Position numbers and translations under genes: made by a program. Of a DNA stretch of 32,000 nucleotides, positions 1,784-31,807 are shown piece after piece. This DNA is from Nonlabens ponticola. GTDB lineage: Bacteria; Bacteroidota; Bacteroidia; Flavobacteriales; Flavobacteriaceae. A model generated the notes under the pieces. It did no database searches. It saw only the letters and a list, made by a program, of their open reading frames with translations, and was not told the DNA's origin. Numbering within the stretch: position 1 is the stretch's first letter; each line of letters begins with the position of its first letter. The stretch spans positions 450,001-482,000 of the forward strand of contig NZ_CP034549.1 in NCBI RefSeq assembly GCF_003966335.1. The letters run 5' to 3'.

Positions 1784-1805
1784 TTACGCTTTCGCGAAAG
1801 CGTAA
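1784..1805. repeat. Iterated palindrome copy 1 (perfect 22 bp TTACGCTTTCGCGAAAGCGTAA)
   Basis: Read directly. It lies in the sufA-sufB spacer and has no T-tract after it. Confidence 0.95.
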
Positions 1806-5517: not shown

Positions 5518-5539
5518 TTACGCTTTCGCGAAAGCGTAA
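5518..5539. repeat. Iterated palindrome copy 2 (perfect 22 bp TTACGCTTTCGCGAAAGCGTAA)
   Basis: Read directly. It lies in the sufC-sufD spacer and is followed by an A/C-rich tract (CAACCACGAACATCACCACACAAAAC). Confidence 0.95.
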
Positions 5540-5573: not shown

Positions 5574-6887
5574 ATGAGTTTTAAAGACAATATTCTATCT
5601 TCTTTTATGGCCCTTGAAAATGAGGTCGATACAGATAGTTATGTCCACAGCATACGCAACAAGGCGCTGAATGATTTTGAGGAAAAAGGCTTGCCGCTGC
5701 GCAAAGACGAGGCTTACAAGTACACTTCTTTGAAGAAGGTTTTCAGCCAGGATTACACGCTGTTTCCTAAAAAAGAAGCAGGTATTGCATATCCTGAGAT
5801 CAAGAAGTACTTGATCCATCAAATTGATGCCTATCGCATCATTTTTATTGATGGTATCTACAGCTCGCACTTGTCTCAAACCACGCACGACAAATTTGAT
5901 GCTTGTTTGATGTCCAGCACATTGAGTAATCCCAAATATGCGAGCGTCATCGAGAATTATTATAACAAACTGGCAGGCGATGATAGCCTGACTTCTTTGA
6001 ATACAGCTTTTGCACGTGAAGGTGCTTACATTCACATAGGCGAGAATATTCAGGTTGAAAAACCTATTGAAATCGTCTATTTCTCGACGGGCAACGAGAG
6101 CGCACTTATGGTGCAGCCTCGTAACCTAGTGGTTGTTGGTAAAAACTCTCATGTTCAAATTATCGAGCGTCATCAAAGCTTGAGCGAGAATCCTGTACTG
6201 ACTAATGCAGTAACAGAGATCTATGCCGACCAACGTGCCAATCTAGACTATTACAAGATTCAAAACGATGTGGACACGGCATCATTGATTGATCACACGA
6301 GTGTGGAGCAGCAGTCAGATAGTGAGGTGCGCTTGCACACGTTCTCTTTTGGCGGTGCATTGACACGTAATAATCTGAACTTTTACCAGCGAGGTGAACA
6401 TTGTAATTCTTTGCTTAATGGTGTGACTATCATTGAAGGAAAGCAACATGTGGATCACTCAACTCTAGTACATCATACGCAGCCTAATTGTGAGAGTTAC
6501 CAGCAGTACAAACAAATTTTTGATGACAGATCAGTTGGTGTATTCAATGGTAAGGTTCTCGTGGACAAGATTGCGCAAAAAATCAACGCTTTCCAGCAGA
6601 ATAACAATATTCTAGTGAGCGATAAAGCGACGATCAACGCAAAGCCTCAACTAGAGATTTTTGCAGATGATGTGCGTTGTTCACACGGTTGTACCATAGG
6701 TCAGCTGGATGAAGATGCGCTATTCTACATGCAATCGCGTGGTATTGGTAAAAAAGAGGCACGAGCGCTGCTTATGTTTGCTTTTGCCAACTCAGTTCTT
6801 GAAAGCGTCAAGATTCCAGAAATCAAATCACGCATCACAAAACTGATCGCGATGAAATTACAAGTCGACATAGGTTTTGACCTATAG
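5574..6887 (+). CDS. sufD: Fe-S cluster assembly protein SufD
   Basis: 437 aa. The C-terminal half is SufD-like (HHTQPNCESYQ, PQLEIFADDVRCSHGCTIGQLDEDALFYMQSRGI). Confidence 0.9.
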   Translation: MSFKDNILSSFMALENEVDTDSYVHSIRNKALNDFEEKGLPLRKDEAYKYTSLKKVFSQDYTLFPKKEAGIAYPEIKKYLIHQIDAYRIIFIDGIYSSHLSQTTHDKFDACLMSSTLSNPKYASVIENYYNKLAGDDSLTSLNTAFAREGAYIHIGENIQVEKPIEIVYFSTGNESALMVQPRNLVVVGKNSHVQIIERHQSLSENPVLTNAVTEIYADQRANLDYYKIQNDVDTASLIDHTSVEQQSDSEVRLHTFSFGGALTRNNLNFYQRGEHCNSLLNGVTIIEGKQHVDHSTLVHHTQPNCESYQQYKQIFDDRSVGVFNGKVLVDKIAQKINAFQQNNNILVSDKATINAKPQLEIFADDVRCSHGCTIGQLDEDALFYMQSRGIGKKEARALLMFAFANSVLESVKIPEIKSRITKLIAMKLQVDIGFDL

Positions 6888-9746: not shown

Positions 9747-10262
9747 ATGCGTGAAGAAATCATCAATAGAGTCGCACAATCAAAACTGCAAACGCTGGAC
9801 TTAGAAGACTACTACGTTCCAGGAACACGCAGCCAGATTGATATTGCACCATGGCTGTTAGATGGTATGGTGTTGGTAGAATCACGCTTTCGCGAAAGCG
9901 TAAAAACCACAGACTTTACTGCATATCAAGATCACCACGTTGCCCTACACTGCAGTACAGATGCGATCATACCGCAATGGGCATGGATGCTGGTTCAAAG
10001 CGAGCTTACTGGTGTAGCCAAAACCGTTATTCACGGCTCGCTGGAAGATCTTGAAATTCACCTTTACAATAAAGCTCTGGAAAATATAGATTTAGAGGCA
10101 TATCAAAATGTTCCTGTAATTGTCAAGGGTTGTAGTAACAAACCAGTGCCTACCAGTGCCTACATTTCCATTACAGGAAAGCTGCAGCAAGTGGCTAGCA
10201 GTCTGATGTTTGGCGAGGCCTGTAGCGCTGTTCCTGTTTACAAAAAACCTAAGGCTCGATAG
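9747..10262 (+). CDS. DUF2480 family protein
   Basis: 171 aa. Recognised from memory of the flavobacterial DUF2480 pattern (LEDYY...HCSTDAI.P.WA.ML...KGCS.KPVP..AY...GEACS.VP). It starts 1 nt after the DUF59 stop codon and contains palindrome copy 3. Confidence 0.65.
   Translation: MREEIINRVAQSKLQTLDLEDYYVPGTRSQIDIAPWLLDGMVLVESRFRESVKTTDFTAYQDHHVALHCSTDAIIPQWAWMLVQSELTGVAKTVIHGSLEDLEIHLYNKALENIDLEAYQNVPVIVKGCSNKPVPTSAYISITGKLQQVASSLMFGEACSAVPVYKKPKAR
9882..9903. repeat. Iterated palindrome copy 3 (TCACGCTTTCGCGAAAGCGTAA, 21/22) inside the DUF2480 CDS
   Basis: Read directly. It is translated as SRFRESV. Confidence 0.95.
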
Positions 10263-10342: not shown

Positions 10343-11251
10343 ATGAAAAAACTCATCCTACTTTTATTTGTCATTACCGCAGTAACTGCTCAAGCACAAG
10401 ATGCAGAAGAGCAGCCACAAGGCTGGTCTAACGGCGGTATTTTCCAACTGCTATTCAATCAAAGTGCCTTTAATGCCGAGTGGCAAGGTGGTGGTACCTC
10501 AAGTCTTGCAGGCAACCTAGGATTGAATTATGACATCAACTATTTGATGGATCGCACTTCTTGGGATACCAAAATCATTGCAGAATATGGTATCACGCGT
10601 CAGGATGGCGATGAGTTTACTCGCAAGACTAATGACCGTCTAGAACTCAACACCGTTTATGGTTACAAGATCGCTGAAGACAGCGCATGGTCCTATTCAT
10701 TCTTTTTAAATGCGCTGACGCAGTTTACCAAGGGTTACAATTTTGGCGAGGATGAAGATGGTAACGTCACCAGAACCGAGCGTACCAATTTCCTATCGCC
10801 AGGTTACTTTCAGGCCGGTCCTGGCATGTTGTACAAAAAGGGTGATAACCTATCGGTAAACATTGCTCCAGCAACGGCACGATTGATCGTTGTCGATGGT
10901 CAATTTACTGATGGTCCTGATTATGTCGATGGCGCTTATTTTGGTGTAGATGCAGGTGAGACCACTAGATTTGAACTGGGTGCTTCCATCAATGCGCTAT
11001 ACAACTTCCAGATTGCCGAAAATGTGCGCATGGACAACGTGCTACTACTCTACTCTAACTACCTGGACAAGCCAGGAAATATTGACATCAATTACAGCAC
11101 AAACATCAACATGAAAATCAACGAGTGGTTAAGTGCCAACTTGATTTTCCAAGCGATTTATGACGACAACGCCGTTGGTGCGTTCCAGATACGTGAGGTT
11201 TTTGGCTTGGGTCTTAATTACAAGCTAGGCGACGCTAGAGAGGTGCAGTAG
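10343..11251 (+). CDS. Outer-membrane beta-barrel-like protein (DUF3078-like)
   Basis: 302 aa. Signal peptide ending AQAQD, alternating aromatic/hydrophilic pattern. The WSNGGIFQLLFNQSAFNAEWQGGG opening recalls DUF3078. Confidence 0.55.
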   Translation: MKKLILLLFVITAVTAQAQDAEEQPQGWSNGGIFQLLFNQSAFNAEWQGGGTSSLAGNLGLNYDINYLMDRTSWDTKIIAEYGITRQDGDEFTRKTNDRLELNTVYGYKIAEDSAWSYSFFLNALTQFTKGYNFGEDEDGNVTRTERTNFLSPGYFQAGPGMLYKKGDNLSVNIAPATARLIVVDGQFTDGPDYVDGAYFGVDAGETTRFELGASINALYNFQIAENVRMDNVLLLYSNYLDKPGNIDINYSTNINMKINEWLSANLIFQAIYDDNAVGAFQIREVFGLGLNYKLGDAREVQ

Positions 11252-11264
11252 GTTTGTTTTTATT

Positions 11265-11284
11265 TTACTTTCGCGAAAGCGTGA
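11265..11284. repeat. Iterated palindrome copy 4 (degenerate: TTACTTTCGCGAAAGCGTGA)
   Basis: Perfect 12-bp core CTTTCGCGAAAG at 11268-11279. The left arm lacks 2 nt. It lies between convergent genes. Confidence 0.9.
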
Positions 11285-11315: not shown

Positions 11316-12857
11316 CTATGTCATCGTCTTAATCAATGCAGATAAAATACTCAACCAGATGAAGTTGAAGATGCTTTTTGAGGTGTCGCGTTCTGCCTCG
11401 CCAGTTCCCGTGCGGTAATCGTCGTCGCCGTTGTTGGAATTTTTGGGAACAAATATGTTAGCAATACCGCTGGCAATCTTACTAAAGATATTGTCTTGAT
11501 CTTCCAGCAATTCTACCTTGAACTCATTAAATGACATTTTCATATTGGTGATAGAATTGATGTTGTCACCGTCAATGTCAAAATAGATCTCATCAAGATC
11601 ACCCTTGAAACCTATATTCAAATTAGGTTGCGTGAATCTATTGATATTGCTGGCTGGCAAATTGAAAATATGACCGCTAAACCGAAACGTTTCCTGATCA
11701 TCATTTACATCAAAAGTCCAGTCTGCATGCAGGTCGCCAGCATCTTGAAAAATACCATCGGCCGTGATGTTTGTTTTGACACCTGATTCTTGAGTATTAC
11801 CTACGGTAACCATGGTCAGATCCATTTGAGAAAACTTGATCTCACCTGGTGGCCTGTCGGCTTTCATTTTTTCTTGATAGATGACTTGCGCTTGCTTGAT
11901 GAGTATGGTGTCCATTTGCATGTCAAACGACAGCTTGCGCAGCATCTCGCTATACAGTGGCTTGTAGCTCAAGTCATCTGGTAAGGACTTGCTGCGGTGC
12001 AGGAAAGCATCTGGCTGGAAGATTTCAATACGATCTGCTCTTACCAGTAATTTATCTTCTAGCTGGACATCATAGTTGCGTATTTGCAAACTATCTACAT
12101 CCATCTTGATGTAATCGCGCTCTCTATCTAGTTGCCTATTATACTCGCCTATAGAGTAATCTGGAACGATCCTAAAGTCAATGACATCGATTTGATCTTT
12201 ACCTAATCTAAAGTCACGCACCTGAACGTGCTCTAGGTTATTCAACTTGTAATACAGTGAGTCTGTAGTGATACTTACATCATCATAGGTAACAGGAATC
12301 TTCTTAGCAATTTGTAAACTGTCTGTAGCAAGATTGACGAGGCTCAATTTCCCATCATAAATGGACATGATGAGCGAGTCAGCCTGTTTATTATACATAT
12401 CAAAACTAGAACTACCTATCTCAAATTTCTTGATTAAGATATCCTTATTGATTTCCGCCAGCGGATTTCTCTTAGAACCCGATGAGTCGGCAGGTTTTTG
12501 ATATCTGTTTTGGTAATACTTGACCGCATTCCTATCAACGCGTATCAAATCAATCTTAATCTGATCCTTGAAGAAGTATTCCCAATAATCCACACCTTCA
12601 ATGTCCAGGTAATTAAAATAACCTGAGGTATGAACCTCATCATCCTGCTGATTTGAAAGCGCTACCTGAATACTGTCAATCCTTATACTACCAGACCACA
12701 AACTCATGGAAAGATCTTCATACTTGAGATCCACATTATCTGCCAGACCATTTTCTAGAAAGTTGACAACCTTGCCTTTAATGATGGTGTTTGCAGTAAT
12801 CAAACCGATTACAAAAATGGTAGCTAGTATTCCTATAACAATCAGTAGCTTTTTCAT
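11316..12857 (-). CDS. Hypothetical N-terminally anchored protein (possibly AsmA-like)
   Basis: 513 aa with a single N-terminal TM (LLIVIGILATIFVIGLITA). It starts 9 nt downstream of the hflX stop codon. No firm family call. Confidence 0.6.
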   Translation of the reverse strand: MKKLLIVIGILATIFVIGLITANTIIKGKVVNFLENGLADNVDLKYEDLSMSLWSGSIRIDSIQVALSNQQDDEVHTSGYFNYLDIEGVDYWEYFFKDQIKIDLIRVDRNAVKYYQNRYQKPADSSGSKRNPLAEINKDILIKKFEIGSSSFDMYNKQADSLIMSIYDGKLSLVNLATDSLQIAKKIPVTYDDVSITTDSLYYKLNNLEHVQVRDFRLGKDQIDVIDFRIVPDYSIGEYNRQLDRERDYIKMDVDSLQIRNYDVQLEDKLLVRADRIEIFQPDAFLHRSKSLPDDLSYKPLYSEMLRKLSFDMQMDTILIKQAQVIYQEKMKADRPPGEIKFSQMDLTMVTVGNTQESGVKTNITADGIFQDAGDLHADWTFDVNDDQETFRFSGHIFNLPASNINRFTQPNLNIGFKGDLDEIYFDIDGDNINSITNMKMSFNEFKVELLEDQDNIFSKIASGIANIFVPKNSNNGDDDYRTGTGEAERDTSKSIFNFIWLSILSALIKTMT

Positions 12858-14862: not shown

Positions 14863-15786
14863 ATGTTCCCGATTGCCTTTCATCCCATTTACAAACACCC
14901 GTTACCAGAAGGTCATCGTTTCCCAATGATCAAGTACGAGCTATTACCACAGCAGCTGTTGCTCGAGGGAACCGCTAGTAAGTCAGACTTTTTTGAGCCC
15001 AGCAAACTGGCTGCAGATGTTGATGTACTGCGCGTTCATGATCAAGCATATCTAGATGATTTGAAGAACTTGACGCTTGAGCGTCGTGCTGCGCGCAAAC
15101 TGGGTTTCCCGTTAAGTAAAATACTGGTAGAACGCGAGCTGCGCATCGCTCAAGGAACCATTGAAGGCTGCCTAAAAGCCATGAATTACAAGGTCGCTAT
15201 GAACATCGCTGGCGGCACGCACCATGCCTATACAGATCACGGTGAGGCTTTTTGTTTACTCAACGATCAGGCAATTGCGTCTAGATACTTACAACAACAC
15301 GGTCATGCAGAAAAAATTCTTATAGTAGATCTAGATGTGCATCAAGGAAACGGCACCGCGCAAATCTTCCAAAAAGATGACAGTGTCTTCACCTTTAGTA
15401 TGCATGGCGCTGGTAATTATCCTTTCAAGAAAGAGCAATCTGATCTTGATATTGCGCTGCCAGATGGCACAAATGACGATACCTTTCTGAGTGAACTACG
15501 CAACACGCTACCTGATCTTATTCATGAGCAACGACCCGATTTTATATTCTATCTCGCTGGTGTTGACGTTTTAGCCACTGATAAGCTAGGTAGGTTAGGA
15601 ATGACACTGGATGGTTGTCGTATGCGAGATGAGTTTGCTTTTTCCGCTTTCGCGAAAGCGGAACATAAATCAAAACCATTCATACCAGTACAATGCAGTA
15701 TGGGCGGCGGCTACTCACCTGAGATCAAGGTCATCATCGATGCACACAGCAATACCTACAAGGCAGCGCGAGATATCTTGATTTAG
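14863..15786 (+). CDS. Histone deacetylase family protein (acetoin utilisation/HDAC-like amidohydrolase)
   Basis: 307 aa. GGTHHA, DLDVHQGNGT and MGGGY motifs are typical of the arginase/deacetylase superfamily. Contains palindrome copy 5. Confidence 0.9.
   Translation: MFPIAFHPIYKHPLPEGHRFPMIKYELLPQQLLLEGTASKSDFFEPSKLAADVDVLRVHDQAYLDDLKNLTLERRAARKLGFPLSKILVERELRIAQGTIEGCLKAMNYKVAMNIAGGTHHAYTDHGEAFCLLNDQAIASRYLQQHGHAEKILIVDLDVHQGNGTAQIFQKDDSVFTFSMHGAGNYPFKKEQSDLDIALPDGTNDDTFLSELRNTLPDLIHEQRPDFIFYLAGVDVLATDKLGRLGMTLDGCRMRDEFAFSAFAKAEHKSKPFIPVQCSMGGGYSPEIKVIIDAHSNTYKAARDILI
15642..15663. repeat. Iterated palindrome copy 5 (perfect 22 bp coding variant TTCCGCTTTCGCGAAAGCGGAA)
   Basis: Read directly. 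It lies inside the HDAC-family CDS and is translated SAFAKAE. Confidence 0.95.
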
Positions 15787-16901: not shown

Positions 16902-18371
16902 ATGCTTTTCAAAATGAGATATACTGTTCTTGCTACTATAATTTTTGCCTTTTTAGTATCATGCGATAAAAAAAACCATAAAACAGAACTGATTGAACAA
17001 ACTGAGATTGTTCTTGAACTTGAGGGCTTTGATATTGATAGTGACAAAAGATTTATTCAAATCAGTATTGAAAACGGACTACAGCCAATCAAGGAACAAC
17101 TAGATATCAATGCTCAGGGCAAAGTAAATTTTAATTTTTTTACCAAAAGAAAAAGAGAGGTGCTGTTCACGTATGAGGGCTATAGATTTAAAGCTTTCGT
17201 ATCTCCTGGAGAGAGCTTTCACGCAATCATTCCATTTGATGAACTAACTGATTATACGTCATACTACCCAAATTTGAAAATTGAGCCAAGCGAGAATTCA
17301 AACTTGAACTATCAAATAATTAAATATGGCAATCATATAGACAGCTTAATCAACACTTCCACCAACGGATTCTCGAATGACGGTAATGTGAACGAATTAG
17401 ATTATGCAAACCTTCGAATACGCGAGATGAATAAGCAAATTGCTGATTTGAAATCGCATTTTAATGAGGTTGATAATTCTGAATTTATTTCGTGGGCAGT
17501 TTCAGAAATAAAAAATTATGCTGGAAACGATTTGAGCTTATATCCTTTTGTTAATGGAATCAATGAAGAGGTACACGCTGATCATACATACTTTAAGTTT
17601 ATCTCGAAGGTTGAAGATGACCTTTCTTATCTAACGCATTCGAAGTTAAATTACTTAGAAAGTTTATCAACTTCTCATATGATTATGAGCAATGTTTCAA
17701 ATAAATATAAAGAGAAGAGAGAAGAATTAGAAAATAAGGGCTTAAACAATTTTCCTATTGCTTACGATAAAATCAAAACATATTTGAATAAAAAGGATGG
17801 AGAGATAATGATGGCAAGCTTATTTATGGATACTTATCGAGTTCCAAAATCATATGCAGACAGTCTCAATGGATTGGTTGATGGTAAGCTTATTAACCAA
17901 GTTCATTCTATTCAAGAATCTGAGAATATAAATATTATAAATGCATTGAAATCTTTCAAGCTCACTGACCAAGAGCGAGAACCACTATTAAAAATATACG
18001 ATAACGCAGATGGAAAAGTCATTTACCATGATTTTTGGTTCTCAACCTGTGCACCATGCATGATGGAAATGCCTTATTATAACAAATTTATTGAATCAGC
18101 TGACGACACGGTAGTTGAATTTGTCTTTTACGGTGTCTACATGGAAGAGGAACAGTGGCAGAAAACAATTGAACAATTTGATTTACAAGGAAGGCACCTT
18201 TTATTAAATAAGAATCAATTAGCCTTCTTCGAAAAATATTTCGATGTATATGGCTATCCTCATCACCATTTTGTTCTCTCAAACGGAACAATCGGTGATA
18301 AAACCAATTTAGGACCAGGCAGCCCGAAAGGACTAAGCGAGCTGATAGAGAATGCTTTAACTATAGAATAA
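16902..18371 (+). CDS. Lipoprotein with C-terminal thioredoxin-fold (TlpA/ResA-like) domain
   Basis: 489 aa. Lipobox FLVSC. WFSTCAPCMMEMP carries a CxxC motif near residue 383. The N-terminal ~370 aa are unrecognised. An alternative ATG lies at 16914. Confidence 0.65.
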   Translation: MLFKMRYTVLATIIFAFLVSCDKKNHKTELIEQTEIVLELEGFDIDSDKRFIQISIENGLQPIKEQLDINAQGKVNFNFFTKRKREVLFTYEGYRFKAFVSPGESFHAIIPFDELTDYTSYYPNLKIEPSENSNLNYQIIKYGNHIDSLINTSTNGFSNDGNVNELDYANLRIREMNKQIADLKSHFNEVDNSEFISWAVSEIKNYAGNDLSLYPFVNGINEEVHADHTYFKFISKVEDDLSYLTHSKLNYLESLSTSHMIMSNVSNKYKEKREELENKGLNNFPIAYDKIKTYLNKKDGEIMMASLFMDTYRVPKSYADSLNGLVDGKLINQVHSIQESENINIINALKSFKLTDQEREPLLKIYDNADGKVIYHDFWFSTCAPCMMEMPYYNKFIESADDTVVEFVFYGVYMEEEQWQKTIEQFDLQGRHLLLNKNQLAFFEKYFDVYGYPHHHFVLSNGTIGDKTNLGPGSPKGLSELIENALTIE

Positions 18372-18708: not shown

Positions 18709-19361
18709 CGCAAACACTCAGCATCCAGAATTTGTGTTTGGATTATGGTAACAATTCTATTCTCAATAATATCGAGTTGAAAATAGAAACCGGTAACATT
18801 TACGGATTATTAGGCCTTAACGGTGCTGGCAAGTCCAGTATGATGAAAGCGCTTTCTGGATTAAATAAAAAAGCTAGTTTTCGAGCACATCACAATGACA
18901 AGGCCATTGACCTCAACAATCATAAGCTGCAAACTGTAGGTTACTTGCCACAAGATCCATTCTTGATGAAGTCGCTTAGTGTGGTTGATACAGTGGCTTA
19001 CTGGTATCCAGATTATGAGATTCAGGATCAAATATTATACGATCCCATGATCCATCAATTTCATAAAACCAAAGTGGGTAAATTATCCATGGGCGAGCAA
19101 CGTTTTCTAGAACTATCGCTTATCATGCAACTACCGCATCCTTTCCTAATGCTGGACGAGCCTTTTTCTGGTCTCGCACCGCTGCAAATTGAACGCAGTC
19201 AAGAATTGATTAAGGTGGGCAGCAAGGATAAAGGAATCGTTATTTCTGATCATTACTACGATAACGTGATCCAGATTACTCATATCAATTGGATGCTGCG
19301 TGACGGTAATCTCAATCTCGTGGATAAAGAGAATGTTGAAACAGCTTATCGTATAAAGTAG
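18705..19361 (+). CDS. ABC transporter ATP-binding protein
   Basis: Taken from the internal ATG at 18705 (MTQTLSIQNL). Walker A GLNGAGKSS, Q-loop LPQD, signature variant LSMGEQR, Walker B FLMLDEP, H-loop SDH. Confidence 0.85.
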   Translation: MTQTLSIQNLCLDYGNNSILNNIELKIETGNIYGLLGLNGAGKSSMMKALSGLNKKASFRAHHNDKAIDLNNHKLQTVGYLPQDPFLMKSLSVVDTVAYWYPDYEIQDQILYDPMIHQFHKTKVGKLSMGEQRFLELSLIMQLPHPFLMLDEPFSGLAPLQIERSQELIKVGSKDKGIVISDHYYDNVIQITHINWMLRDGNLNLVDKENVETAYRIK

Positions 19362-19431
19362 ATCAGTTGTAACATCGTAGTACAATCCTAGTTCCCTTGG
19401 TTGCTTTCCTTCTTAAATTGAAGTTTGGCAA

Positions 19432-20307
19432 TTATCCTGCAGTAATATATTTTTTAGGCGTGGTGCCGTATTTCTTTTTAAACGCACTGATAAAATGGCT
19501 TCCAGTGCTGTAACCTACTTTTAAACCTACTTCGTTTACATTGTGCTGGCCGCTGTCCAGCAATTGGCGTGCATATTCCATCTTGTGATCCAACAGGAAA
19601 CCGTAGACCGTATCGCCATAGACTTCCTTAAAGCCTTCCTTTAATTTCTTGAGCGGTAGCGCAATTTCTTTAGCAAGATCTGCCAGTGATGGTGGATCGG
19701 TCATGCGCTGGATGATGATGTCTTTAGCCATCTTTATTTTGGCCATGTTTTTCTCGTCCACTAGGAATGGGCACGCCTCAATATCAGGATCGTCCTTAGT
19801 ATTAAAATAGAGCGACAGCAATTCATACGCCTTGCCTTTAAAGTACAATCGCTTGATGGCATCATTGAGGTTGTAATTCATTAATTGGTGCAAGGCTACT
19901 GCCATAGACGGCGATACCTTACCATCCACATAATATTTTTTATCTCGGTTGTCATCACTTAAAAAACTCACATGATCTGCGTCAGGAGAGAAAAGCGAGT
20001 GAAATTTTTTGATGGAAACCAGTAATACAACGACCCAGCTATTAGCTGCGATATCTAGATTTACTGGCAGGTCTCGCATGGGATTGTACAGCAAATAGGA
20101 GTTTTGTTCCATGAGCGGCAACTTATAATTGCCCTCGTTAAATGCTAGTTGCACGCTGCCTTTCAAACAAAAGTGGAACTGGATAAAAGTGCGATCTACT
20201 GCGTGTTCAAAATGCTCGTTGTCAGCCGTTTCGTTCTTGATGCGCACCACTTGAAATCCATCTTCCATCTGCGTCACCTCGGCGGCACTTGTAGCGATAT
20301 TTATCAT
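19432..20307 (-). CDS. AraC family transcriptional regulator
   Basis: 291 aa. C-terminal double HTH (LADLAKEIALPLKKLKEGFK...VNEVGLKVGYSTGSHFISAFKKKYGTTPKKY). Confidence 0.88.
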   Translation of the reverse strand: MINIATSAAEVTQMEDGFQVVRIKNETADNEHFEHAVDRTFIQFHFCLKGSVQLAFNEGNYKLPLMEQNSYLLYNPMRDLPVNLDIAANSWVVVLLVSIKKFHSLFSPDADHVSFLSDDNRDKKYYVDGKVSPSMAVALHQLMNYNLNDAIKRLYFKGKAYELLSLYFNTKDDPDIEACPFLVDEKNMAKIKMAKDIIIQRMTDPPSLADLAKEIALPLKKLKEGFKEVYGDTVYGFLLDHKMEYARQLLDSGQHNVNEVGLKVGYSTGSHFISAFKKKYGTTPKKYITAG

Positions 20308-20338: not shown

Positions 20339-20360
20339 TTACGCTTTCGCGAAAGCGTAA
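20339..20360. repeat. Iterated palindrome copy 6 (perfect 22 bp TTACGCTTTCGCGAAAGCGTAA)
   Basis: Read directly. It lies in the divergent araC-like/hemA intergenic region. Confidence 0.95.
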
Positions 20361-20476: not shown

Positions 20477-20498
20477 CACAACATTGCAAAAGCAATAC

Positions 20499-21755
20499 AT
20501 GACCAGGTCAACGGGCACACCACACAATTTTTACAGCATAGGTATAAGCTACCGCAAGGCAGACGCAGAGACACGTGGCGCCTTTGCGTTGAGCGATACA
20601 GCCATTGTAAATCTGCTCAACGAGGCCAAGGATAACGGCATCAACTCTCTTGCCGTGATCTCTACGTGTAATCGTACAGAGTTATATGGATTTGCCCGCA
20701 GCTCGCAGGATCTAATTAAATTACTTTGCGTGCACTCGCACGGCAGTATTGAGGAGTTTGACAAGATTGCCTATGTGTACGAGAATGAACAGGCGCACCA
20801 GCATCTTTTTAAAGTAGGTACAGGACTGGATAGCCAGATCTTGGGAGATTTTGAGATTATAGGCCAGCTTAAAATAGCCTTTAAAAAGTCTAAAAAGCTA
20901 GGCATGATCAATGCCTACATGGAGCGGTTGTTAAACGCCGTGATCCAGGCCAGCAAGCGCATCAAGACCGAAACGCAATTGAGTAGTGGCGCTACCTCAG
21001 TATCCTTTGCGAGTGTTCAATATATTTTGAACCAGGTTGAGAACGGTGATGATAAACGCATACTACTTTTTGGCACTGGTAAAATAGGTCGTAATACCTG
21101 TGAGAACCTCATCAAGCACACGCATAATAAAAAGATCACGCTCATCAATAGAACAAAAGATCGAGCAGAAAAAATTGCTGGTAAGTTTGATCTTGAAGTA
21201 AAAGATTATGCCCAACTAGAAGAAGAAATTGCTCAAGCCGATATCATGATCGTCGCCACTGGCGCTCACAATCCTACAGTTTCTAAAAACTTGATCGTTA
21301 CCTCAAGGCCTATTCTGATTCTTGACCTATCCATACCTCGCAATGTTGATCCAGATGTGCGCGACCTGGATAATGTCACACTAGTCCACCTAGATGAGCT
21401 GTCCAAAATCACTGATGCCACGCTACAAAACAGGGAACACTTTATACCACAAGCACAAGGCATCATCGAGGAAATCATGACAGACTTTGACACCTGGCGC
21501 GAGTCTAGAAAATTTGCGCCTACCATGCAGGCGCTTAAATCCAGACTATCAGAACTTAAGGAAGCGGAAATCAAAAGCAACCGCACTAAGATCGATAACT
21601 TCAATCAAGAGCAGGCAGATGTGCTGGCAGATCGTATTATCCAGAAAATCGCAGGGCACTTTGCCAACCATTTGCGCAATGAGGACGAGAATACGCAGGA
21701 AGCCATCGAGCTGCTCAATAAGGTCTTCAAGTTAGAAAATGCCGTGCATGAGTAA
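20499..21755 (+). CDS. hemA: Glutamyl-tRNA reductase
   Basis: Active-site ISTCNRTELY and NADPH-site GTGKIGR. Start taken at the ATG at 20499; the track ORF begins at a TTG at 20484. Confidence 0.92.
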   Translation: MTRSTGTPHNFYSIGISYRKADAETRGAFALSDTAIVNLLNEAKDNGINSLAVISTCNRTELYGFARSSQDLIKLLCVHSHGSIEEFDKIAYVYENEQAHQHLFKVGTGLDSQILGDFEIIGQLKIAFKKSKKLGMINAYMERLLNAVIQASKRIKTETQLSSGATSVSFASVQYILNQVENGDDKRILLFGTGKIGRNTCENLIKHTHNKKITLINRTKDRAEKIAGKFDLEVKDYAQLEEEIAQADIMIVATGAHNPTVSKNLIVTSRPILILDLSIPRNVDPDVRDLDNVTLVHLDELSKITDATLQNREHFIPQAQGIIEEIMTDFDTWRESRKFAPTMQALKSRLSELKEAEIKSNRTKIDNFNQEQADVLADRIIQKIAGHFANHLRNEDENTQEAIELLNKVFKLENAVHE

Positions 21756-22695
21756 GCAAATACGAATAGGTACTCGCGACAGCGAGCTGGCCATGTGGCA
21801 AGCGCGCACCGTACAGTCACTACTTGAGGCAAACGGCCATCAAACACTACTCGTTCCCGTAAAATCGCAAGGCGACCTCAATCTAGATGAGCCACTATAT
21901 GAGATGGGCATTACAGGGATTTTTACCAAAACACTTGACGTTGCCCTGGTCAAAGGCGAGATTGATATTGCAGTGCACAGTCTTAAGGATGTGCCTACTC
22001 AATTACCTAAAGGCATGATACAGGCAGCAGTCTTGCCACGTGCAGACCATCGCGACATTCTCGTTTTCAAAAAGAACTTTAATCCAGACGACCAGATGAC
22101 GATCGCTACTGGTAGTTTGCGTCGCAAGTCGCAATGGCTGGATATGTATCCGCAGCACAAGGTGGTTGACCTGCGCGGTAATGTAAACACCAGACTGGCA
22201 AAACTGCAAAATAATGAGGATTGGAACGCAGCGATTTTTGCCAAGGCTGGATTGGAACGAATCAATATCCTGCAGAATTTACGCGGTAATTATGGCCTGG
22301 AATATTCCAATCTGGACAGCTTTATTCCTGCACCTGCACAAGGTGCAATGATGATTGCCTGTATGCAGAAAAATGAAGCAATTGTCAAAGCTACCGCTGC
22401 ATTGAACGATCTGGAAACCCAAAAATGTGTTGATGTAGAGCGCCTGTTCCTGCGTCGTCTAGAAGGTGGTTGTACCGCACCCATAGGTGCTTTTGCAAGT
22501 ATTCACAATGATAGCATGCATTTTCAAGGCTGTTTGTTATCACTGGATGGCTCGCAGCGCATTAGTGCAAATGGTACTATCGACAGTCTGGACTGGAAAG
22601 ATTTAGAAAATTTTGCTTTCGCGAAAGCGGAACACATATTAAACAATGGTGGCACAGAATTAATGACTTCCATTAAACAGTCCTTACAACAGTAG
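21748..22695 (+). CDS. hemC: Hydroxymethylbilane synthase (porphobilinogen deaminase)
   Basis: IRIGTRDSELAMWQA, GNVNTRLAKL and cofactor-Cys LEGGCTAPIGA. The ATG at 21748 overlaps the hemA stop by 8 nt; an alternative ATG lies at 21739. Contains palindrome copy 7. Confidence 0.92.
   Translation: MSKQIRIGTRDSELAMWQARTVQSLLEANGHQTLLVPVKSQGDLNLDEPLYEMGITGIFTKTLDVALVKGEIDIAVHSLKDVPTQLPKGMIQAAVLPRADHRDILVFKKNFNPDDQMTIATGSLRRKSQWLDMYPQHKVVDLRGNVNTRLAKLQNNEDWNAAIFAKAGLERINILQNLRGNYGLEYSNLDSFIPAPAQGAMMIACMQKNEAIVKATAALNDLETQKCVDVERLFLRRLEGGCTAPIGAFASIHNDSMHFQGCLLSLDGSQRISANGTIDSLDWKDLENFAFAKAEHILNNGGTELMTSIKQSLQQ
22611..22632. repeat. Iterated palindrome copy 7 (core GCTTTCGCGAAAGC, 22615-22628) inside hemC
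   Basis: Read directly. It is translated FAFAKAEH. Confidence 0.93.
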
Positions 22696-22778: not shown

Positions 22779-23945
22779 TTGAACAAGACCGCCGAGATCC
22801 TGAGAAACAGTGTTCCTGAAATCATGAACACATGGAAAAGAGAGGTGATTAATGAAGTTCCCGCAGCCCAAGAGGCTGGGACGATGGCACTTTTTGACCA
22901 CTTGCCCAATATCATCACCGATATAGCAGACTTGCTGGATCGACACAGCAATCTATCTGATATCAAAGAAGATGAAAACTACAAGGAGATTATAGTAAAT
23001 AGTAAACATCATGGACGCCATCGTGCCAGTAGTGAGAGTTATACGGTAGAACAAGTCGTACAGGAATATATCATTTTTCATCGCACCTTAAGCGAGTTTA
23101 TCAATGAGCGCGATGCCTATGACCAGCAAATTTCAGACTTGGTTAAGTATGTGATTGAAACCTCGATTCTTGAGTCTGTAGGTACTTTCTCAAAGTCGAT
23201 TCAAGAAATGCAGGAAAAACTGATTGGGACACTGGCTCATGACATACGCAATCCGCTTGCTGCTGCGCGACTATCCCTACAAATGATACAGGAAGATAAG
23301 GATGGCAGCTGGACAGAACGTGCTTTAAACGCTGCTACACGCAGTGTTAATCATGCGCTTGACCTTATAGAAGGCTTGATGAATGGTATCACGGTAAAAG
23401 CTGGAGAAGGTCTATTGTTGTCATTTGAAGAAACAGATCTCAAACATAATATCGACCTCGTATTTAATGAGAGTAAGGATTTGTATACTCACGATCTCGT
23501 ACTTAAATGTGAGGCTAAAGCTATACACGGTGTTTTTGATAGTACCGCGGTACGCCGCATGATCGATAATCTTATAGGAAATGCGATCAAATATGGTGAT
23601 AGCAATCAAGAAGTAACGCTTACCATTCAAGATGATGATGACAGCGTACAAATCTCTGTTCATAATCACGGTAATCCAATACCTGAGGACCAACAGGAAA
23701 AGATTTTTGATTTCATGAACACGTCCATAGAAGATCAGGACACTCCAGCTAAAAGTTGGGGCATGGGCCTAACGCTTGTACAAATCGTGGCAGATGCTCA
23801 CGGTGGTGACATCAAATTGACGAGCTCAGTAGATCATGGAACCACTTTTGAAGTTACTTTACTTAAACATGTCAACAAACCTGGCAAACGACGCGCAAAA
23901 CTGATATACGACGCGCATGAAATAGTAGATGAGCACATCCAGTAG
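22779..23945 (+). CDS. Sensor histidine kinase (cytoplasmic, no adjacent response regulator)
   Basis: 388 aa. H-box HDIRNPLAAA, N-box GNAIKYG, G-boxes HNHGNPIP and WGMGLTLV. It apparently starts at a TTG; the next ATG is at 22824. Confidence 0.88.
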   Translation: MNKTAEILRNSVPEIMNTWKREVINEVPAAQEAGTMALFDHLPNIITDIADLLDRHSNLSDIKEDENYKEIIVNSKHHGRHRASSESYTVEQVVQEYIIFHRTLSEFINERDAYDQQISDLVKYVIETSILESVGTFSKSIQEMQEKLIGTLAHDIRNPLAAARLSLQMIQEDKDGSWTERALNAATRSVNHALDLIEGLMNGITVKAGEGLLLSFEETDLKHNIDLVFNESKDLYTHDLVLKCEAKAIHGVFDSTAVRRMIDNLIGNAIKYGDSNQEVTLTIQDDDDSVQISVHNHGNPIPEDQQEKIFDFMNTSIEDQDTPAKSWGMGLTLVQIVADAHGGDIKLTSSVDHGTTFEVTLLKHVNKPGKRRAKLIYDAHEIVDEHIQ

Positions 23946-24756: not shown

Positions 24757-24771
24757 TTTGCGATATAACAT

Positions 24772-24807
24772 ATCAAAAGCGGCGGAATTAGTTCCGCCGC
24801 TTTTGAT
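24772..24807. terminator. Bidirectional rho-independent terminator between cvpA and sulP
   Basis: Perfect 16-bp stem ATCAAAAGCGGCGGAA / TTCCGCCGCTTTTGAT with loop TTAG. The A- and T-runs allow function in both directions. Confidence 0.8.
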
Positions 24808-24827
24808 GTCAATTTAGTTGTGTTCTT

Positions 24828-26684
24828 TTAAACCTCTTCTGGCGCCACAGTATCTTCCACATTTTGCTCTACCCAACTCACGCACTGCGTGTAGCTTTCA
24901 AACAAATGCTCTTCCTTGATCAAGTCTGGTATGATATCAATTGCTTCTAGTCTATAGCGAGGCTGTTCCTTTAGACCTGATATAAGTGGTGTCACACCTT
25001 GCTGCACCAAATATTGCGCAACGTCTTCAAAAGCAAACAGTCCTGACTGATCCATAAAAGGTACCTTCTCCATCCTGATGATGACGTGCGTGGCTTTCGA
25101 CGGAATGTTCTGTGACATGGCCTGGAAATCCTTTGTAGAACCAAAGAACAAAGGACCATCGATCTCTTTGATAAATACTTCTTCGCGCAAGTCCAGCGGA
25201 ATCAATGAGTAATCCTCATCGCCGTAATCATCCTTGCGTGATAGTGTCTTTACTTGGCTCTTGGCAGCATTTGCATCGCCCATTTTTTTCATGAAAATCA
25301 AGCTGGCTATCACAAGACCTATTCCTACCGCATAAACCAGATCCCAAGTCACGGTCAAAGTGAGTACCACAAACATGATGACTACATCACTTTTTGGAAT
25401 GGATCTCAAGGCTTTTAATCCTTTATAATCCATCACACCAATACCTACCGTAATTAATATACCTGCGAGAACAGCGCTAGGAATCTCGCTGGCAAAACCA
25501 CCCAAAGCAACTACAATGATCAGCAGCAACACTGCTGCGATCATTCCTGATAGTTTTGTTTTACCACCAGAATCGATGTTGACAACAGTTCTAATCGTCG
25601 CTCCAGCACCTGGAATTCCGCCAAAAATGGAAGCGATACTGTTACCAATTCCTTGACCTACCAGTTCTTGATTTGGATTGTGTCGTGTTTTGGTCATGTT
25701 ATCTGCTACCACACTGGTAAGTAACGAGTCAATCGCACCTAGAAGTGCTAATGTAAGAGCCGTAAATATGTACGGCGACACGGCTCCAAAACTAAAGCCT
25801 GTGATGATCTCTAGATTAGGAATAGGCAATCCTGTTGGGATCTCACCCAATTTTCTAGCATCAATGTCTAGCAAAAATACGCCTAATGTGACACCTAGCA
25901 ACGCAACCAGTGTTGACGGAATGCTCGTCGTGATTTTCTTAAATCCAAAGATCACGACGATGGTTATCAACGCAATAATCAACTCGGTAAAATCAATATT
26001 TTGAAAGGCTCGTGGCATGGTCTTGATAGATCCCACCACACCGCTACTGGCGCTTTTGGCTAGAGCAGTAGCTTCCTTATTGATTTGTTCTTGGGTGATG
26101 TTCTGCGCCTTGACGATGCTCTGTTCAAAATCTTGAAGTACCAACACGTCATCGGCAACTTCTTCTTCGAGAATTCCGTTGAGAATGAGCTCTTGTGCTG
26201 CTGGCTCAAAGGTTTTTACAAACTCCTCATCTTGAGATGGTATGTATCCTATGGCTGGTAATATTTGAGTAATCAAAATAATGACCCCAATTCCCGTCAT
26301 AAATCCTGAAACTACTGGATAAGGTATGTATTTGATATACTTACCCAATTTCATAGCTCCCAAAGCTATTTGCATAATTCCAGCCATGAGAAATACGGCA
26401 AGAATTGCTGGTAAGGCGTTTTCAAGCGAGCCTTCATTGGTTTGAATGATTCCTGCGATGATGACCATACTTACAGCAGTCATGGGCGCGGTAGGTCCAG
26501 AGATCTGAGTATTCGTTCCGCCAAAAAGCGAAGCAAAAAAACCAATAAAGATAGCACCGTACAATCCAGCAACAGCACCCATTCCTGATTGTACACCAAA
26601 GGCTAGTGCCAGCGGCAAAGCCACAATACCTGCGGTAAGACCGCCAAATAAATCTCCTTTAATGTGCTTGAATGTAAAAGTCAT
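24828..26684 (-). CDS. SulP family inorganic anion transporter with C-terminal STAS domain
   Basis: 618 aa. N-terminal SulP motifs (GDLFGGLTAGIVALPLALAFG, GGTNTQISGPTAPMTAV), many TM segments, STAS-like C-terminus. Confidence 0.88.
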   Translation of the reverse strand: MTFTFKHIKGDLFGGLTAGIVALPLALAFGVQSGMGAVAGLYGAIFIGFFASLFGGTNTQISGPTAPMTAVSMVIIAGIIQTNEGSLENALPAILAVFLMAGIMQIALGAMKLGKYIKYIPYPVVSGFMTGIGVIILITQILPAIGYIPSQDEEFVKTFEPAAQELILNGILEEEVADDVLVLQDFEQSIVKAQNITQEQINKEATALAKSASSGVVGSIKTMPRAFQNIDFTELIIALITIVVIFGFKKITTSIPSTLVALLGVTLGVFLLDIDARKLGEIPTGLPIPNLEIITGFSFGAVSPYIFTALTLALLGAIDSLLTSVVADNMTKTRHNPNQELVGQGIGNSIASIFGGIPGAGATIRTVVNIDSGGKTKLSGMIAAVLLLIIVVALGGFASEIPSAVLAGILITVGIGVMDYKGLKALRSIPKSDVVIMFVVLTLTVTWDLVYAVGIGLVIASLIFMKKMGDANAAKSQVKTLSRKDDYGDEDYSLIPLDLREEVFIKEIDGPLFFGSTKDFQAMSQNIPSKATHVIIRMEKVPFMDQSGLFAFEDVAQYLVQQGVTPLISGLKEQPRYRLEAIDIIPDLIKEEHLFESYTQCVSWVEQNVEDTVAPEEV

Positions 26685-28464: not shown

Positions 28465-29220
28465 TTACAATTCTTTATAACTGTCCTGTGGCACCCATGC
28501 CTTCTCACCGTTGGCGATGCGGACTTTGCTCCAGTCCTCATAGGATTCCAGTATCTCAACTTTGGTTCCAGCATGCAGTGTAAAGGTAGATTGAGAGCTG
28601 TTATTAGGTTCACTTCTGGAAATAACCTCTTGATCATAGATAATGGCAGTATTGCTACTGACCATCAAGTCGTTTGACCTGAATGCCGCATAAATCGATA
28701 AACCCATCACGAGTAAAAAGACGATGAAAAACGTGAAAAACAATCGCTTCTTGCCACTTGTTGCGGCGTAATGATATAGCACAAAACACAAAACGGCCAG
28801 TATCGCTAGCATGATGCTCAAGTAAGCCCAACTATCGGTTGACATGGATTTCACCAGAGACGTCATCGCATCTAGAAAGGGATTACCACCTAACGACTCT
28901 ATGCGATCTACCGTCATTTGTTGCGCAAACTTTAAATTGTTCCGTACGTCTTCATTATCTGGATCCATCATCAAGGCTTTTTCATAGTGATAGATGGACG
29001 GTGCGACCTCATTCAACTTATAGTATGTATTACCCAGATTGTAATAGACCTGCACGCTGTGCTTTCCAGATTGCAGGATGCTTGAATACAACTCTTGAGC
29101 CTCTTGATAATTACCATTGGTGTATGCGTTATTAGCTTTCGCGAAAGCTGAATCATCAACATCTTCCTGCGAAAAAAGAAGTGCAGGAATAAGTAGCAAA
29201 ATCATAAACAGGTTTCTCAT
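28465..29220 (-). CDS. batE: TPR plus SH3 domain protein, BatE-like
   Basis: 251 aa. Signal peptide, TPR repeats (YYNLGNTYYKLNE), two TM segments, SH3-like C-terminus (WSKVRIANGEKAWVPQDS). TAATG overlap with batD. Contains palindrome copy 9. Confidence 0.7.
   Translation of the reverse strand: MRNLFMILLLIPALLFSQEDVDDSAFAKANNAYTNGNYQEAQELYSSILQSGKHSVQVYYNLGNTYYKLNEVAPSIYHYEKALMMDPDNEDVRNNLKFAQQMTVDRIESLGGNPFLDAMTSLVKSMSTDSWAYLSIMLAILAVLCFVLYHYAATSGKKRLFFTFFIVFLLVMGLSIYAAFRSNDLMVSSNTAIIYDQEVISRSEPNNSSQSTFTLHAGTKVEILESYEDWSKVRIANGEKAWVPQDSYKEL
29134..29149. repeat. Iterated palindrome copy 9 (AGCTTTCGCGAAAGCT) inside the BatE-like CDS
   Basis: Read directly. On the coding strand it is translated SAFAKAN. 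Confidence 0.93.
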
Positions 29221-30971: not shown

Positions 30972-31807
30972 TCTTTCTCTGTGCGCACGCCCTTGCCTTT
31001 TTGCTTGCGTGCATTGATTTTATCTTGAATTTTCTGTTCCTCGTTATTCATGGCCTCTAGGATCTGGCGTATTTGCTGCGGTGTCATCTGACCTTCTTGA
31101 CGTGGTCGCTGTTCGTTGCCGCCTTGCTCTTTAGGTTTGCCATCACCGTTGTCACCTTCGCTATTCTCGCCTTTGTCGTTCTCCTTTTCCTTGCCGTCAT
31201 CGCCTTCTTTATCATCACCATCTTTCTCTTTGTCACCATCTCCTTTACCATCAGAATTTTCATCTTGGTCGCCTTCCTTGTTCTGATTCTCGTCCTTGTT
31301 GTCGCCTTGCTCTGGCTGGTCTTTATCATTACCGCCACCACCGCCTTGATTCTCTTCTTCTTGCTTGGCAAGTGCTAGGTTGTATCGCGTCTCATCATCG
31401 GTTGGATCGTTGCGCAGTGCATTTTTGTAGGCCTCAACCGCTTCTACATACTGCTTGTTTTCCATAAAGGTGTTACCCAGATTATGGAAGATTTTATGCT
31501 TTTCTTCTTTAGTTTTAGCGCTCAATGCAGCGTCTCTATAATTCTCCACAGCACTGTAGCCTTTCTTATTGTTATAGTAAACGTTCCCTAGATTATAGCT
31601 AGCCTCAGCACTTGACGGATTGATAGCTTTAGCTTTTCTATAGGCTGCTTCAGCTTCCACAAAGTCGCTGCTTTGAGCTGCAGACTGACCATTGGCCATT
31701 GCGGTCTCATAATCTTGTTGTTGGACTTCTGATAATTGCGCTTTCGCGAAAGCGGAACACATCAAAACCAAAACCAAAGCAACTATGTTTTTCATGTACC
31801 TATTCAT
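30965..31807 (-). CDS. batC: TPR repeat protein, BatC-like, with long acidic low-complexity linker
   Basis: 280 aa. Signal peptide, TPR repeats (YNLGNVYYNNKK, FHNLGNTFMENKQY), G/D/E/K/N-rich tract. An alternative ATG lies at 31795. Contains palindrome copy 10 in the signal-peptide region. Confidence 0.7.
   Translation of the reverse strand: MNRYMKNIVALVLVLMCSAFAKAQLSEVQQQDYETAMANGQSAAQSSDFVEAEAAYRKAKAINPSSAEASYNLGNVYYNNKKGYSAVENYRDAALSAKTKEEKHKIFHNLGNTFMENKQYVEAVEAYKNALRNDPTDDETRYNLALAKQEEENQGGGGGNDKDQPEQGDNKDENQNKEGDQDENSDGKGDGDKEKDGDDKEGDDGKEKENDKGENSEGDNGDGKPKEQGGNEQRPRQEGQMTPQQIRQILEAMNNEEQKIQDKINARKQKGKGVRTEKDW
31736..31757. repeat. Iterated palindrome copy 10 (TTGCGCTTTCGCGAAAGCGGAA; perfect 16 bp at 31739-31754) inside batC
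   Basis: Read directly. On the coding strand it is translated CSAFAKAQ, at the predicted signal-peptide cleavage region. Confidence 0.93.

Follow-up and report, generated by a model that had tools for sequence, protein, structure and literature searches.

A 14-nt palindrome iterated through the genomes of Nonlabens, Dokdonia and relatives as a probable selection-maintained genomic signal

The stretch of DNA analyzed here (the window) comprises 32 kb of Nonlabens ponticola and carries, from left to right, sufB and a SufD-like gene, genes for DUF2480 and DUF3078 proteins, an HDAC-family gene, hemA and hemC, and genes of a Bat cluster that includes batC. Distributed among them are copies of a 14-nt core, GCTTTCGCGAAAGC, which is a perfect palindrome and is called the motif below. 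Eight exact copies and one copy with a single mismatch are found in the window (Table 1). In dinucleotide shuffles of the window, by comparison, the expected number of matches with no more than two mismatches was 0.07, and a total of nine did not arise in any of 100 shuffles. An exact-sequence look-up of the window's HDAC-family protein gave no record, and the species was recognized from a 100% identical protein of N. ponticola (P0001). Four of the nine copies are intergenic and five lie within genes, where the motif is translated four times as AFAKA and once, in the DUF2480 gene, as RFRES.

Three of these copies had already been flagged in a first-pass annotation, which described a block shared by the HDAC-family gene, hemC and batC. 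The reported identities are present, namely 21 nt (CGCTTTCGCGAAAGCGGAACA) at 15645-15665 and 31739-31759, and 23 nt (GCTTTCGCGAAAGCGGAACACAT) at 22615-22637 and 31740-31762, with ATCAAAACCA following the block within 1-3 nt in two of the flagged copies. The translations are also as described: AFAKAEH in the HDAC-family gene and in hemC, and LVLVLMCSAFAKA from the minus strand in batC. That batC yields the same peptide AFAKA from the opposite strand is explained by the palindromic nature of the core, which is read in the same phase on either strand. The notion of a block common to three genes has to be replaced, however, by that of a motif repeated throughout the sampled genomes, with nine copies in this window. 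The three flagged copies do have a further 6-9 nt in common, GGAACA, reaching GGAACACAT in hemC and batC (15645-15677, 22615-22637, 31739-31772). This extra identity is peculiar to these three sites, none having been seen elsewhere. It is partly explained by the flank consensus described below, G-[G/T]-A-A followed by G-poor sequence. By a rough estimate, the sharing is improbable under the general flank profile, and it could reflect coincidence or a rare copy-to-copy conversion.

Table 1. Copies of the motif in the 32-kb window of N. ponticola
Copy	Position	Location	Reading or form
Exact	1788..1801	Intergenic; 20 nt past the stop of an Fe-S biosynthesis gene (1376-1768), before sufB (1933-3381)	Extended palindrome TTAC-core-GTAA
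Exact	5522..5535	Intergenic; between open reading frame 4743-5495 and SufD-like gene 5574-6887	Extended palindrome TTAC-core-GTAA
Exact	9886..9899	In DUF2480 gene (9747-10262, +)	Phase 1, R-F-R-E-S
One mismatch, ACTTTCGCGAAAGC	11267..11280	Intergenic, convergent; between DUF3078 gene (10343-11251, +) and 11316-12857 (-)	
Exact	15646..15659	In HDAC-family gene (14863-15786, +)	Phase 0, A-F-A-K-A, residues 262-266; first flagged copy
Exact	20343..20356	Intergenic, divergent; between AraC-type regulator gene (19432-20307, -) and hemA (20484-21755, +)	
Exact	22615..22628	In hemC (21739-22695, +)	Phase 0, AFAKA near the C-terminus; second flagged copy
Exact	29135..29148	In TPR/SH3 (Bat-cluster) gene 28465-29220 (-)	Phase 0, AFAKA directly after the signal peptide
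Exact	31740..31753	In batC (30965-31807, -)	Phase 0, AFAKA ending the signal peptide; third flagged copy

A scan for the 14-mer in one genome per species returned at least 120 tiles, each of up to 8 kb. Among the matches listed, about 90 tiles belong to Nonlabens, Dokdonia or uncultured Flavobacteriaceae, and two or three copies in one tile are frequent there. The others are lone hits scattered over unrelated high-GC genomes, as expected by chance. Seven 21-kb loci fetched through their HDAC gene were combined with the window, and these 178 kb hold 43 exact copies. At this density of about one per 4 kb, a 3-Mb genome would have several hundred copies by extrapolation. The same sequences contain only about eight copies with one mismatch, and the family is therefore dominated by perfect copies. 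The motif is also the sole palindrome of at least 10 nt that is repeated across the loci; the locus of Nonlabens sp. Hel1_33_55 has a second, local one, which is a REP-like element (REP, repetitive extragenic palindrome). The half-site GCGAAAGC was considered as the actual unit and rejected: outside full copies it occurs 13 times versus 3 expected, and these extra occurrences mostly lie within decayed full copies. Avoidance or enrichment of a restriction type was likewise discarded, as TCGCGA and CGCG occur outside the copies at their expected frequency.

The copies are evenly spaced. In the eight long loci, none of the 43 intervals is shorter than 1 kb, versus 11 expected by random placement, and the coefficient of variation of the intervals is 0.45 versus 0.88 (P<0.001). 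No paired copies occur in these loci, the smallest spacing being about 1 kb. In the 8-kb tiles, 2 of 53 intervals fall below 1 kb when 14.5 would be expected, and the even spacing persists in a less redundant subset of loci. In the single phage compared, Nonlabens phage P12024S (35.7 kb), no copy was found at up to two mismatches, where the density in the host predicts about nine.

Both genes and spacers harbor the motif. With the crude gene calls available for the tiles, 33% of 152 copies are intergenic versus 12% of the sequence, and in the HDAC-centered loci with called genes the intergenic share is about a third of 44 copies. The density is 0.84 copies per kb in divergent spacers, 0.62 in tandem and 0.63 in convergent ones, and several intergenic copies lie 5-30 nt past stop codons. 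The 102 coding copies, found in either orientation, use all three phases, with 60 in phase 0 (AFAKA), 22 in phase 1 (xFRES) and 20 in phase 2 (LSRK). Those in phase 0 are enriched near N-termini, in the first 20% of genes. Coding copies occupy tolerant places in the proteins, such as helix ends, loops and the ends of signal peptides.

Many copies persist at orthologous sites. In the HDAC gene, the copy is exact throughout the seven Nonlabens species examined, and the copies in the DUF2480 gene, hemC, the AraC/hemA spacer, the spacer after the DUF3078 gene and the TPR/SH3 gene recur at orthologous positions, with occasional decay by one base. The DUF2480 copy has orthologues in N. agnitus and N. 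antarcticus, as well as a one-mismatch version in Nonlabens sp. Hel1_33_55. The AraC/hemA spacer copy is kept in N. agnitus, N. antarcticus and N. tegetincola, again with one mismatch in Hel1_33_55. Four of five Nonlabens hemC genes carry their copy, and that of the TPR/SH3 gene is exact at the orthologous position of N. antarcticus. The copy after the DUF3078 gene (11267) is exact in three other Nonlabens species and has its mismatch in N. ponticola only. A one-mismatch variant, CCTTTCGCGAAAGC, was also observed at the same site of a sulfate transporter gene in two species (L121:18119 and L242:20180, where L121 and L242 are two of the sampled loci); in the orthologous gene of N. ponticola (window 24828-26684), no copy is present at up to two mismatches.

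The HDAC gene allows constraint on the DNA to be separated from constraint on the protein. Across the seven Nonlabens species, 161 degenerate codons specify invariant residues, with a mean pairwise codon identity of 44%. Only 14 of them are identical in all seven species, and five of these 14 are the consecutive codons of the motif, GCT TTC GCG AAA GCG. In addition, the HDAC gene of Flavimarina sp. Hel_I_48 has GCTTCCGCGAAAGC, one mismatch away from the motif, in the same loop but in phase 1 (CFRES); the chance of such a near-match at this loop is estimated at about 1e-6. The account in which codon preference at conserved residues would suffice to explain the shared bases thus fails, both on the frozen HDAC codons and on the near-motif of Flavimarina in another frame, and the signal is therefore in the DNA. 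In 21 kb of Flavimarina sp. Hel_I_48 (L123:6552, 10782 and 13279), two occurrences of GCTTCCGCGAAAGC and one perfect palindrome, GCTTCCGCGGAAGC, were seen, with no canonical copy and with flanks that look unskewed. These variants may represent a dialect of the motif in a neighboring genus, GCTTCCGCGRAAGC being one candidate for such a dialect.

Comparison of sites with and without the motif points to an origin by base substitution. At the hemC site, N. antarcticus lacks the motif and has GCA TTT GAT CAG GCA, with the length unchanged. The DUF2480 proteins of other genera read E-x-F-R-x-x at equal length, and those of Nonlabens differ by substitutions only. In batC, the signal peptide ends in ..AFAKAQ in nearly all orthologues of the Nonlabens clade, and in ..LFAQ or ..SAQ in other genera. 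Selection on the DNA appears to keep the motif exact, and copies arise and decay by base substitution. Given this origin and the placement of coding copies at helix ends, loops and signal peptides, the motif settles where the protein tolerates it.

The HDAC loop is a more complex case. The first-pass annotation had described flavobacterial homologues as a few residues shorter and had suggested a small insertion. The difference in length is real, the Nonlabens homologues having 307 amino acids versus 299-301 in other Flavobacteriaceae, with six extra residues in this loop; other genera and the closest solved structures (9rje and 9gkv) are six residues shorter there. In about 70 of 73 HDAC proteins of the Nonlabens clade, SAFAKA precedes a tail that is hypervariable in length (6-15 residues) and sequence. 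This tail is rich in T, N, K, Q, H and S, the residues that a G-poor flank encodes. In the window, the G-poor 3' flank encodes the variable loop EHKSKPF. An insertion brought by the motif is nevertheless contradicted by the substitutions without indel at the hemC and DUF2480 sites, and the six extra residues are separable from the motif itself. Indeed, one protein from a metagenome-assembled genome (P0071) has the long loop without the motif, although its genome has five copies nearby, whereas the Flavimarina HDAC has the near-motif without the long loop. In the structure predicted by AlphaFold (mean pLDDT 85), AFAKA closes helix 249-265 at its C-terminal end, and the tail forms the loop before strand 276-279. 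The loop just 3' of the motif (window 15660-15690; proteins P0001-P0073) behaves as an indel-prone low-complexity segment. As for the first-pass claim of a common DNA-level origin, its DNA-level part stands against protein convergence and codon preference on account of the intergenic copies, the use of three frames and the frozen HDAC codons; the block of three genes and the insertion do not.

The anatomy of the complete unit was derived from 151 aligned copies, that is, 302 flanks. Four bases weakly extend the palindrome on either side as core-G(81%)-[T/G]-A(71%)-A(60%) and its mirror image, giving an extended consensus of about 22 bp, [T][T/C][A/C]C-core-G[T/G]A[A/C]. Over about 20 nt of the 3' flank, G drops to 2-10% versus a background of 19%, and both A and C are raised. 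The 5' flank mirrors this composition, being C-poor and G/T-rich, and the skew is gone by 25-30 nt. The whole unit is about 54 bp long, with the 14-bp core, its extension to about 22 bp and a mirrored arm of about 20 nt on each side. A gains what G loses and C gains what T loses, and the skew therefore lies on the transition axis. It affects intergenic copies as well as coding copies whatever their phase, and is equal in Dokdonia and Nonlabens. Both flanks are skewed in 69% of copies versus 16% of random positions (P ~1e-53), and the left and right skews are uncorrelated. A one-sided skew due to the direction of replication or transcription was rejected, since the skew affects both sides and is uncorrelated between them. 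Mirrored positions of the two flanks show no complementarity beyond that expected from composition, and an extended hairpin was also discarded, the folding energy of the core with 25-nt flanks being that of arm-shuffled controls (z ~0). The flanks of different copies are barely more alike than column shuffles predict, and most traceable top flank pairs correspond to orthologous sites in different species. The lack of flank similarity beyond column composition argues that there is no master element.

Among known systems, the closest likeness in anatomy is to HIP1 (GCGATCGC), the highly iterated palindrome of cyanobacteria. Both are perfect palindromes, vastly over-represented, present in genes and spacers and often translated into peptides of the Ala-x-Ala type. 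Both are also conserved at orthologous sites beyond codon effects, regularly spaced and provided with a CG-containing center that is a possible methylation site (PMC5861425 for HIP1). HIP1 is reported to be conserved by selection and quasi-periodic, and its high abundance is reported not to extend beyond cyanobacteria (PMC5861425). It has been reported to increase natural transformation in a way that depends on methylation, and an uptake or Chi-like signal has been proposed (bioRxiv 10.1101/2024.09.10.611283; 10.64898/2026.06.24.733823). The present motif differs in sequence and phylum, being GCTTTCGCGAAAGC in Flavobacteriaceae and not GCGATCGC or a close variant in cyanobacteria. It also differs in length (14, extending to 22 nt, versus 8 nt) and in density (about one per 4 kb versus one per 0.35-1.2 kb). 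The periodicity of 10-90 kb reported for HIP1 comes from whole chromosomes, whereas the even spacing described here is at the kb scale. The skewed flanks of about 20 nt have not been described for HIP1, and no methyltransferase linked to the motif is known.

A second likeness, the closest in evolutionary behavior, is to the DNA uptake sequences (DUS) of Neisseria and the uptake signal sequences (USS) of Pasteurellaceae. They share with the motif a high copy number, restriction to a genus or family with possible dialects, presence in open reading frames as well as spacers, and point substitution in tolerant segments, to which can be added even spacing and an extended flank signature (PMC1939737, PMC2817400 for DUS/USS). 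Uptake sequences originate and evolve through point mutation, their copies are spread evenly, and a majority or a large minority of them fall in open reading frames (PMC1939737), where they settle in tolerant protein segments (PMC2817400, PMC1939737). They number hundreds to thousands per genome, in genes and spacers with an enrichment in the latter, a pattern that the motif fits with about one copy per 4 kb and 33% of its copies in the non-coding 12% of the sequence. DUS and USS are, however, asymmetric, 9-12 nt long and present at about one per kb, often as inverted pairs that act as terminators, and a bias in uptake has been demonstrated for both; the motif forms an inverted repeat by itself, its copies are never paired and their minimum spacing is about 1 kb. 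Within the Flavobacteriaceae, competence has been reported for Riemerella only; Riemerella columbina, which is competent, shows a preference for its own DNA, and an uptake sequence for it has yet to be identified (PMC7965970). The recombination signal Chi has a similar density (about one per 4-5 kb) and is, like the motif, a host-chromosome signature missing from a phage, but Chi sequences are 5-8 nt long, asymmetric, strand-oriented and only modestly over-represented.

The abundance, conservation, substitution origin and spacing of the motif match those of selection-maintained signals and not those of repeats that spread by copying. We therefore consider it likely that Nonlabens, Dokdonia and their relatives possess in GCTTTCGCGAAAGC a highly iterated palindromic signal, maintained by selection in the manner of HIP1 and DUS, which is neither a gene fragment nor a mobile insertion. 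Because of its exact dyad symmetry, it is probably a double-stranded DNA signal read by a dimeric sequence-specific protein, and its central TCGCGA or CGCG may be methylated. Among the other genes of the window, a Pfam scan revealed no candidate for a DNA-binding protein or a methyltransferase. As to function, a tag of the cell's own DNA for uptake and/or recombination, as with DUS and USS and as suggested for HIP1, is a serious possibility, if somewhat less than probable. Two explanations are considered for the flank skew: the reader protein may require such flanks, or they may be the mutational footprint of repeated strand-specific processing that starts at the core. If the flanks are selected, the G/T-rich DNA 5' of the site on each strand could, speculatively, be a place for RecA loading after a Chi-like event. 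If they are a footprint, repeated nicking at the core would be followed by 5' to 3' resection or resynthesis of about 20-25 nt per strand, and the exposed complementary strand would undergo C>T and A>G deamination; the resulting G>A and T>C changes on the 3' side would be exactly the shift observed. The combined picture, in which a palindromic self-DNA tag of marine Flavobacteriaceae directs uptake and/or recombination and its arms are RecA-loading or reader-contact pads or else a processing footprint, is put forward tentatively and judged less likely than not.

Several points weigh against this interpretation. No reader protein, methylation, competence or uptake bias is on record for Nonlabens or Dokdonia. 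Known uptake sequences are non-palindromic, shorter (9-12 nt) and about four times denser, while HIP1 has only 8 nt and its high abundance is reported from cyanobacteria only (PMC5861425). The estimate of several hundred copies per genome is an extrapolation based on loci totaling about 0.9 Mb, and the majority of these had been picked for carrying the motif. Nothing known about DUS, USS, HIP1, parS or Noc-binding sites predicts keto/amino-skewed flanks. Finally, five low-GC contigs of the IMG/VR viral collection (L176, L212, L237, L240 and L201) have two or three copies, partly with typical flanks, and could be prophage, host DNA or phage. The other IMG/VR viral contigs mostly have single hits, which are probably chance matches or prophage.

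Of the alternative functions, binding sites for a chromosome-organizing or nucleoid-occlusion protein of the ParB, Noc or SlmA kind deserve the closest consideration. A dimer would bind each 14-22 bp palindrome and act over a few kb, so that evenly spaced sites would cover the chromosome. Like parS and Noc-binding sites, which are 14-16 bp perfect TTTC...GAAA dyads found in genes and spacers and read by dimers, the motif forms a perfect dyad, here of the xxTTTC..GAAAxx type. Its even spacing, presence in genes and spacers, orthologous conservation and absence from the phage fit this function, and the periodicity of HIP1 has also been interpreted as chromosome organization (PMC5861425). Against this, the dyad spacing is TTTC-GC-GAAA in the motif and TTTC-N4-GAAA in parS and Noc-binding sites. 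ParB-family sites moreover number from a few to about 70 and are regional, whereas the motif has an estimated several hundred sites per genome, about 10 times more than in any known chromosome-organizing system, in tiles from widely separated positions on large scaffolds. No candidate for such a protein was found by the Pfam scan of the window genes, and this function alone leaves the flank skew unexplained. We regard it as rather unlikely, and some other or unlisted function accounts for the remaining probability. A less likely proposal dispenses with function and views the motif as the by-product of a sequence-biased repair or nicking activity, akin to hypercorrection by very-short-patch repair, that regenerates it. 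The skew lies exactly on the transition axis and, on each strand, is confined to about 25 nt 3' of the core, as expected from nicking with short-patch resynthesis or from single-strand exposure, and neutral replenishment by biased repair has been discussed for HIP1 (PMC5861425). The sites nevertheless persist over deep divergence with no turnover, their even spacing is unexpected from a mutational drive, a repair enzyme with 14-bp specificity is unknown, and TCGCGA and CGCG are at expected frequency outside the copies, which together make a by-product improbable.

Mobility of the motif itself would imply that a miniature palindromic element, of the REP, miniature inverted-repeat transposable element (MITE) or Rickettsia-palindromic-element type, was inserted in frame in genes as well as in spacers. 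The HDAC loop of Nonlabens, which exceeds that of other genera and the closest solved structures by 6-15 residues, would suit such an insertion, as would the ability of the sequence to form a hairpin (with a 22-nt extended palindrome) and the presence in Nonlabens of a Y1 transposase of the REP-associated tyrosine transposase (RAYT) type. REPs and bacterial interspersed mosaic elements (BIMEs) are also short hairpin-forming repeats with hundreds of copies, and REPs sometimes lie within genes (PMC3733652). REPs are, however, imperfect palindromes with a GTAG or CGTC tag, mostly extragenic and downstream of genes, often paired, strain-variable and found flanking RAYT genes, whereas the motif has a perfect core without such a tag, is fixed at orthologous sites, has two thirds of its copies in genes and is as dense in divergent spacers as in others. 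The REP/RAYT class was rejected on these grounds, together with the lack of pairing and the finding that the only Y1 transposase gene seen is flanked by a different palindrome of 38 nt, CATCAYAAGGTGCGGAATTAATTCCGCACCTTGTGATG. The Rickettsia type of in-frame insertion was rejected too, since presence or absence of the motif does not correspond to an element-length indel in hemC, DUF2480 or HDAC, and the long loop and the motif occur apart in P0071 and Flavimarina. Unrelated flanks, fixation of copies across species, a minimum spacing of about 1 kb and the rarity of degenerate copies add to the case, and a mobile element is thus very improbable. An RNA hairpin acting as a terminator, attenuator or mRNA stabilizer is still less credible. 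The 22-nt extended palindrome folds stably and several copies closely follow stop codons, but spacer densities are equal whatever the gene orientation, two thirds of the copies are in genes in either orientation, and the exact sequence is kept rather than pairing alone. The 3' flank is A/C-rich, not U-rich, and this, with the equal spacer densities, rules out a role as terminator; an intrinsic terminator was rejected for want of a U-tract and given the copies in divergent spacers and genes. The window has no Rfam match. Lastly, AFAKA could have been reached by convergence of proteins, for instance on the A-x-A site of signal peptidase, in preferred codons. The peptide suits signal-peptide and helix ends, and phase-0 copies do favor the first 20% of genes. 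With a third of all copies intergenic, 42 of the 102 coding copies in other frames, synonymous sites frozen against a mean codon identity of 44% and the Flavimarina motif in another frame of the same loop, this explanation is refuted for practical purposes.

No paper with the 14-mer was found in a literature search of incomplete coverage, and those containing TTTCGCGAAA were irrelevant; nor, with the same coverage, was any link found between iterated palindromes or uptake sequences and Nonlabens, Dokdonia or Flavobacteriaceae. No earlier description having been found, the motif would be the first such signal that we could find for Bacteroidota. Hyper-abundant short signals such as USS/DUS, Chi and HIP1 have each led to DNA-handling machinery, and none could be found described for this phylum. 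Direct follow-up is feasible, as the exact motif is common to the cultivable model flavobacteria Dokdonia and Nonlabens. If it is a self-DNA tag, natural transformation with sequence-specific exchange would be expected of these bacteria, which would also possess an undescribed DNA-processing activity. The mirrored flank skew may record a strand-specific process. If it promotes uptake or recombination, its inclusion in constructs could improve the genetics of marine flavobacteria, as HIP1 does in Synechococcus. For annotation, it matters that a DNA-level constraint, and not protein function, shapes the AFAKA, RFRES and LSRK segments of hundreds of proteins along with the low-complexity loops next to them.

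Some further observations concern the neighborhood of these loci. In Nonlabens sp. Hel1_33_55, the region L242:18826-19723 encodes a 134-amino acid IS200-like Y1 transposase (19117-19521, -; Pfam Y1_Tnp, E=1e-27), whose gene is flanked by three copies of the 38-41 nt palindrome CATCAYAAGGTGCGGAATTAATTCCGCACCTTGTGATG in a classic REP/RAYT arrangement. This region corresponds to the short cvpA-sulP spacer of N. ponticola (window 24757-24827), and the arrangement is absent from the window. N. ponticola has a 489-amino acid open reading frame without Pfam match and a histidine-kinase gene (window 16902-18371 and 22779-23945), neither with a motif copy; N. agnitus, Hel1_33_55 and N. antarcticus lack both at their syntenic loci. 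N. ponticola also has one DUF3078 gene (window 10343-11251) where three syntenic Nonlabens species have two tandem paralogues.

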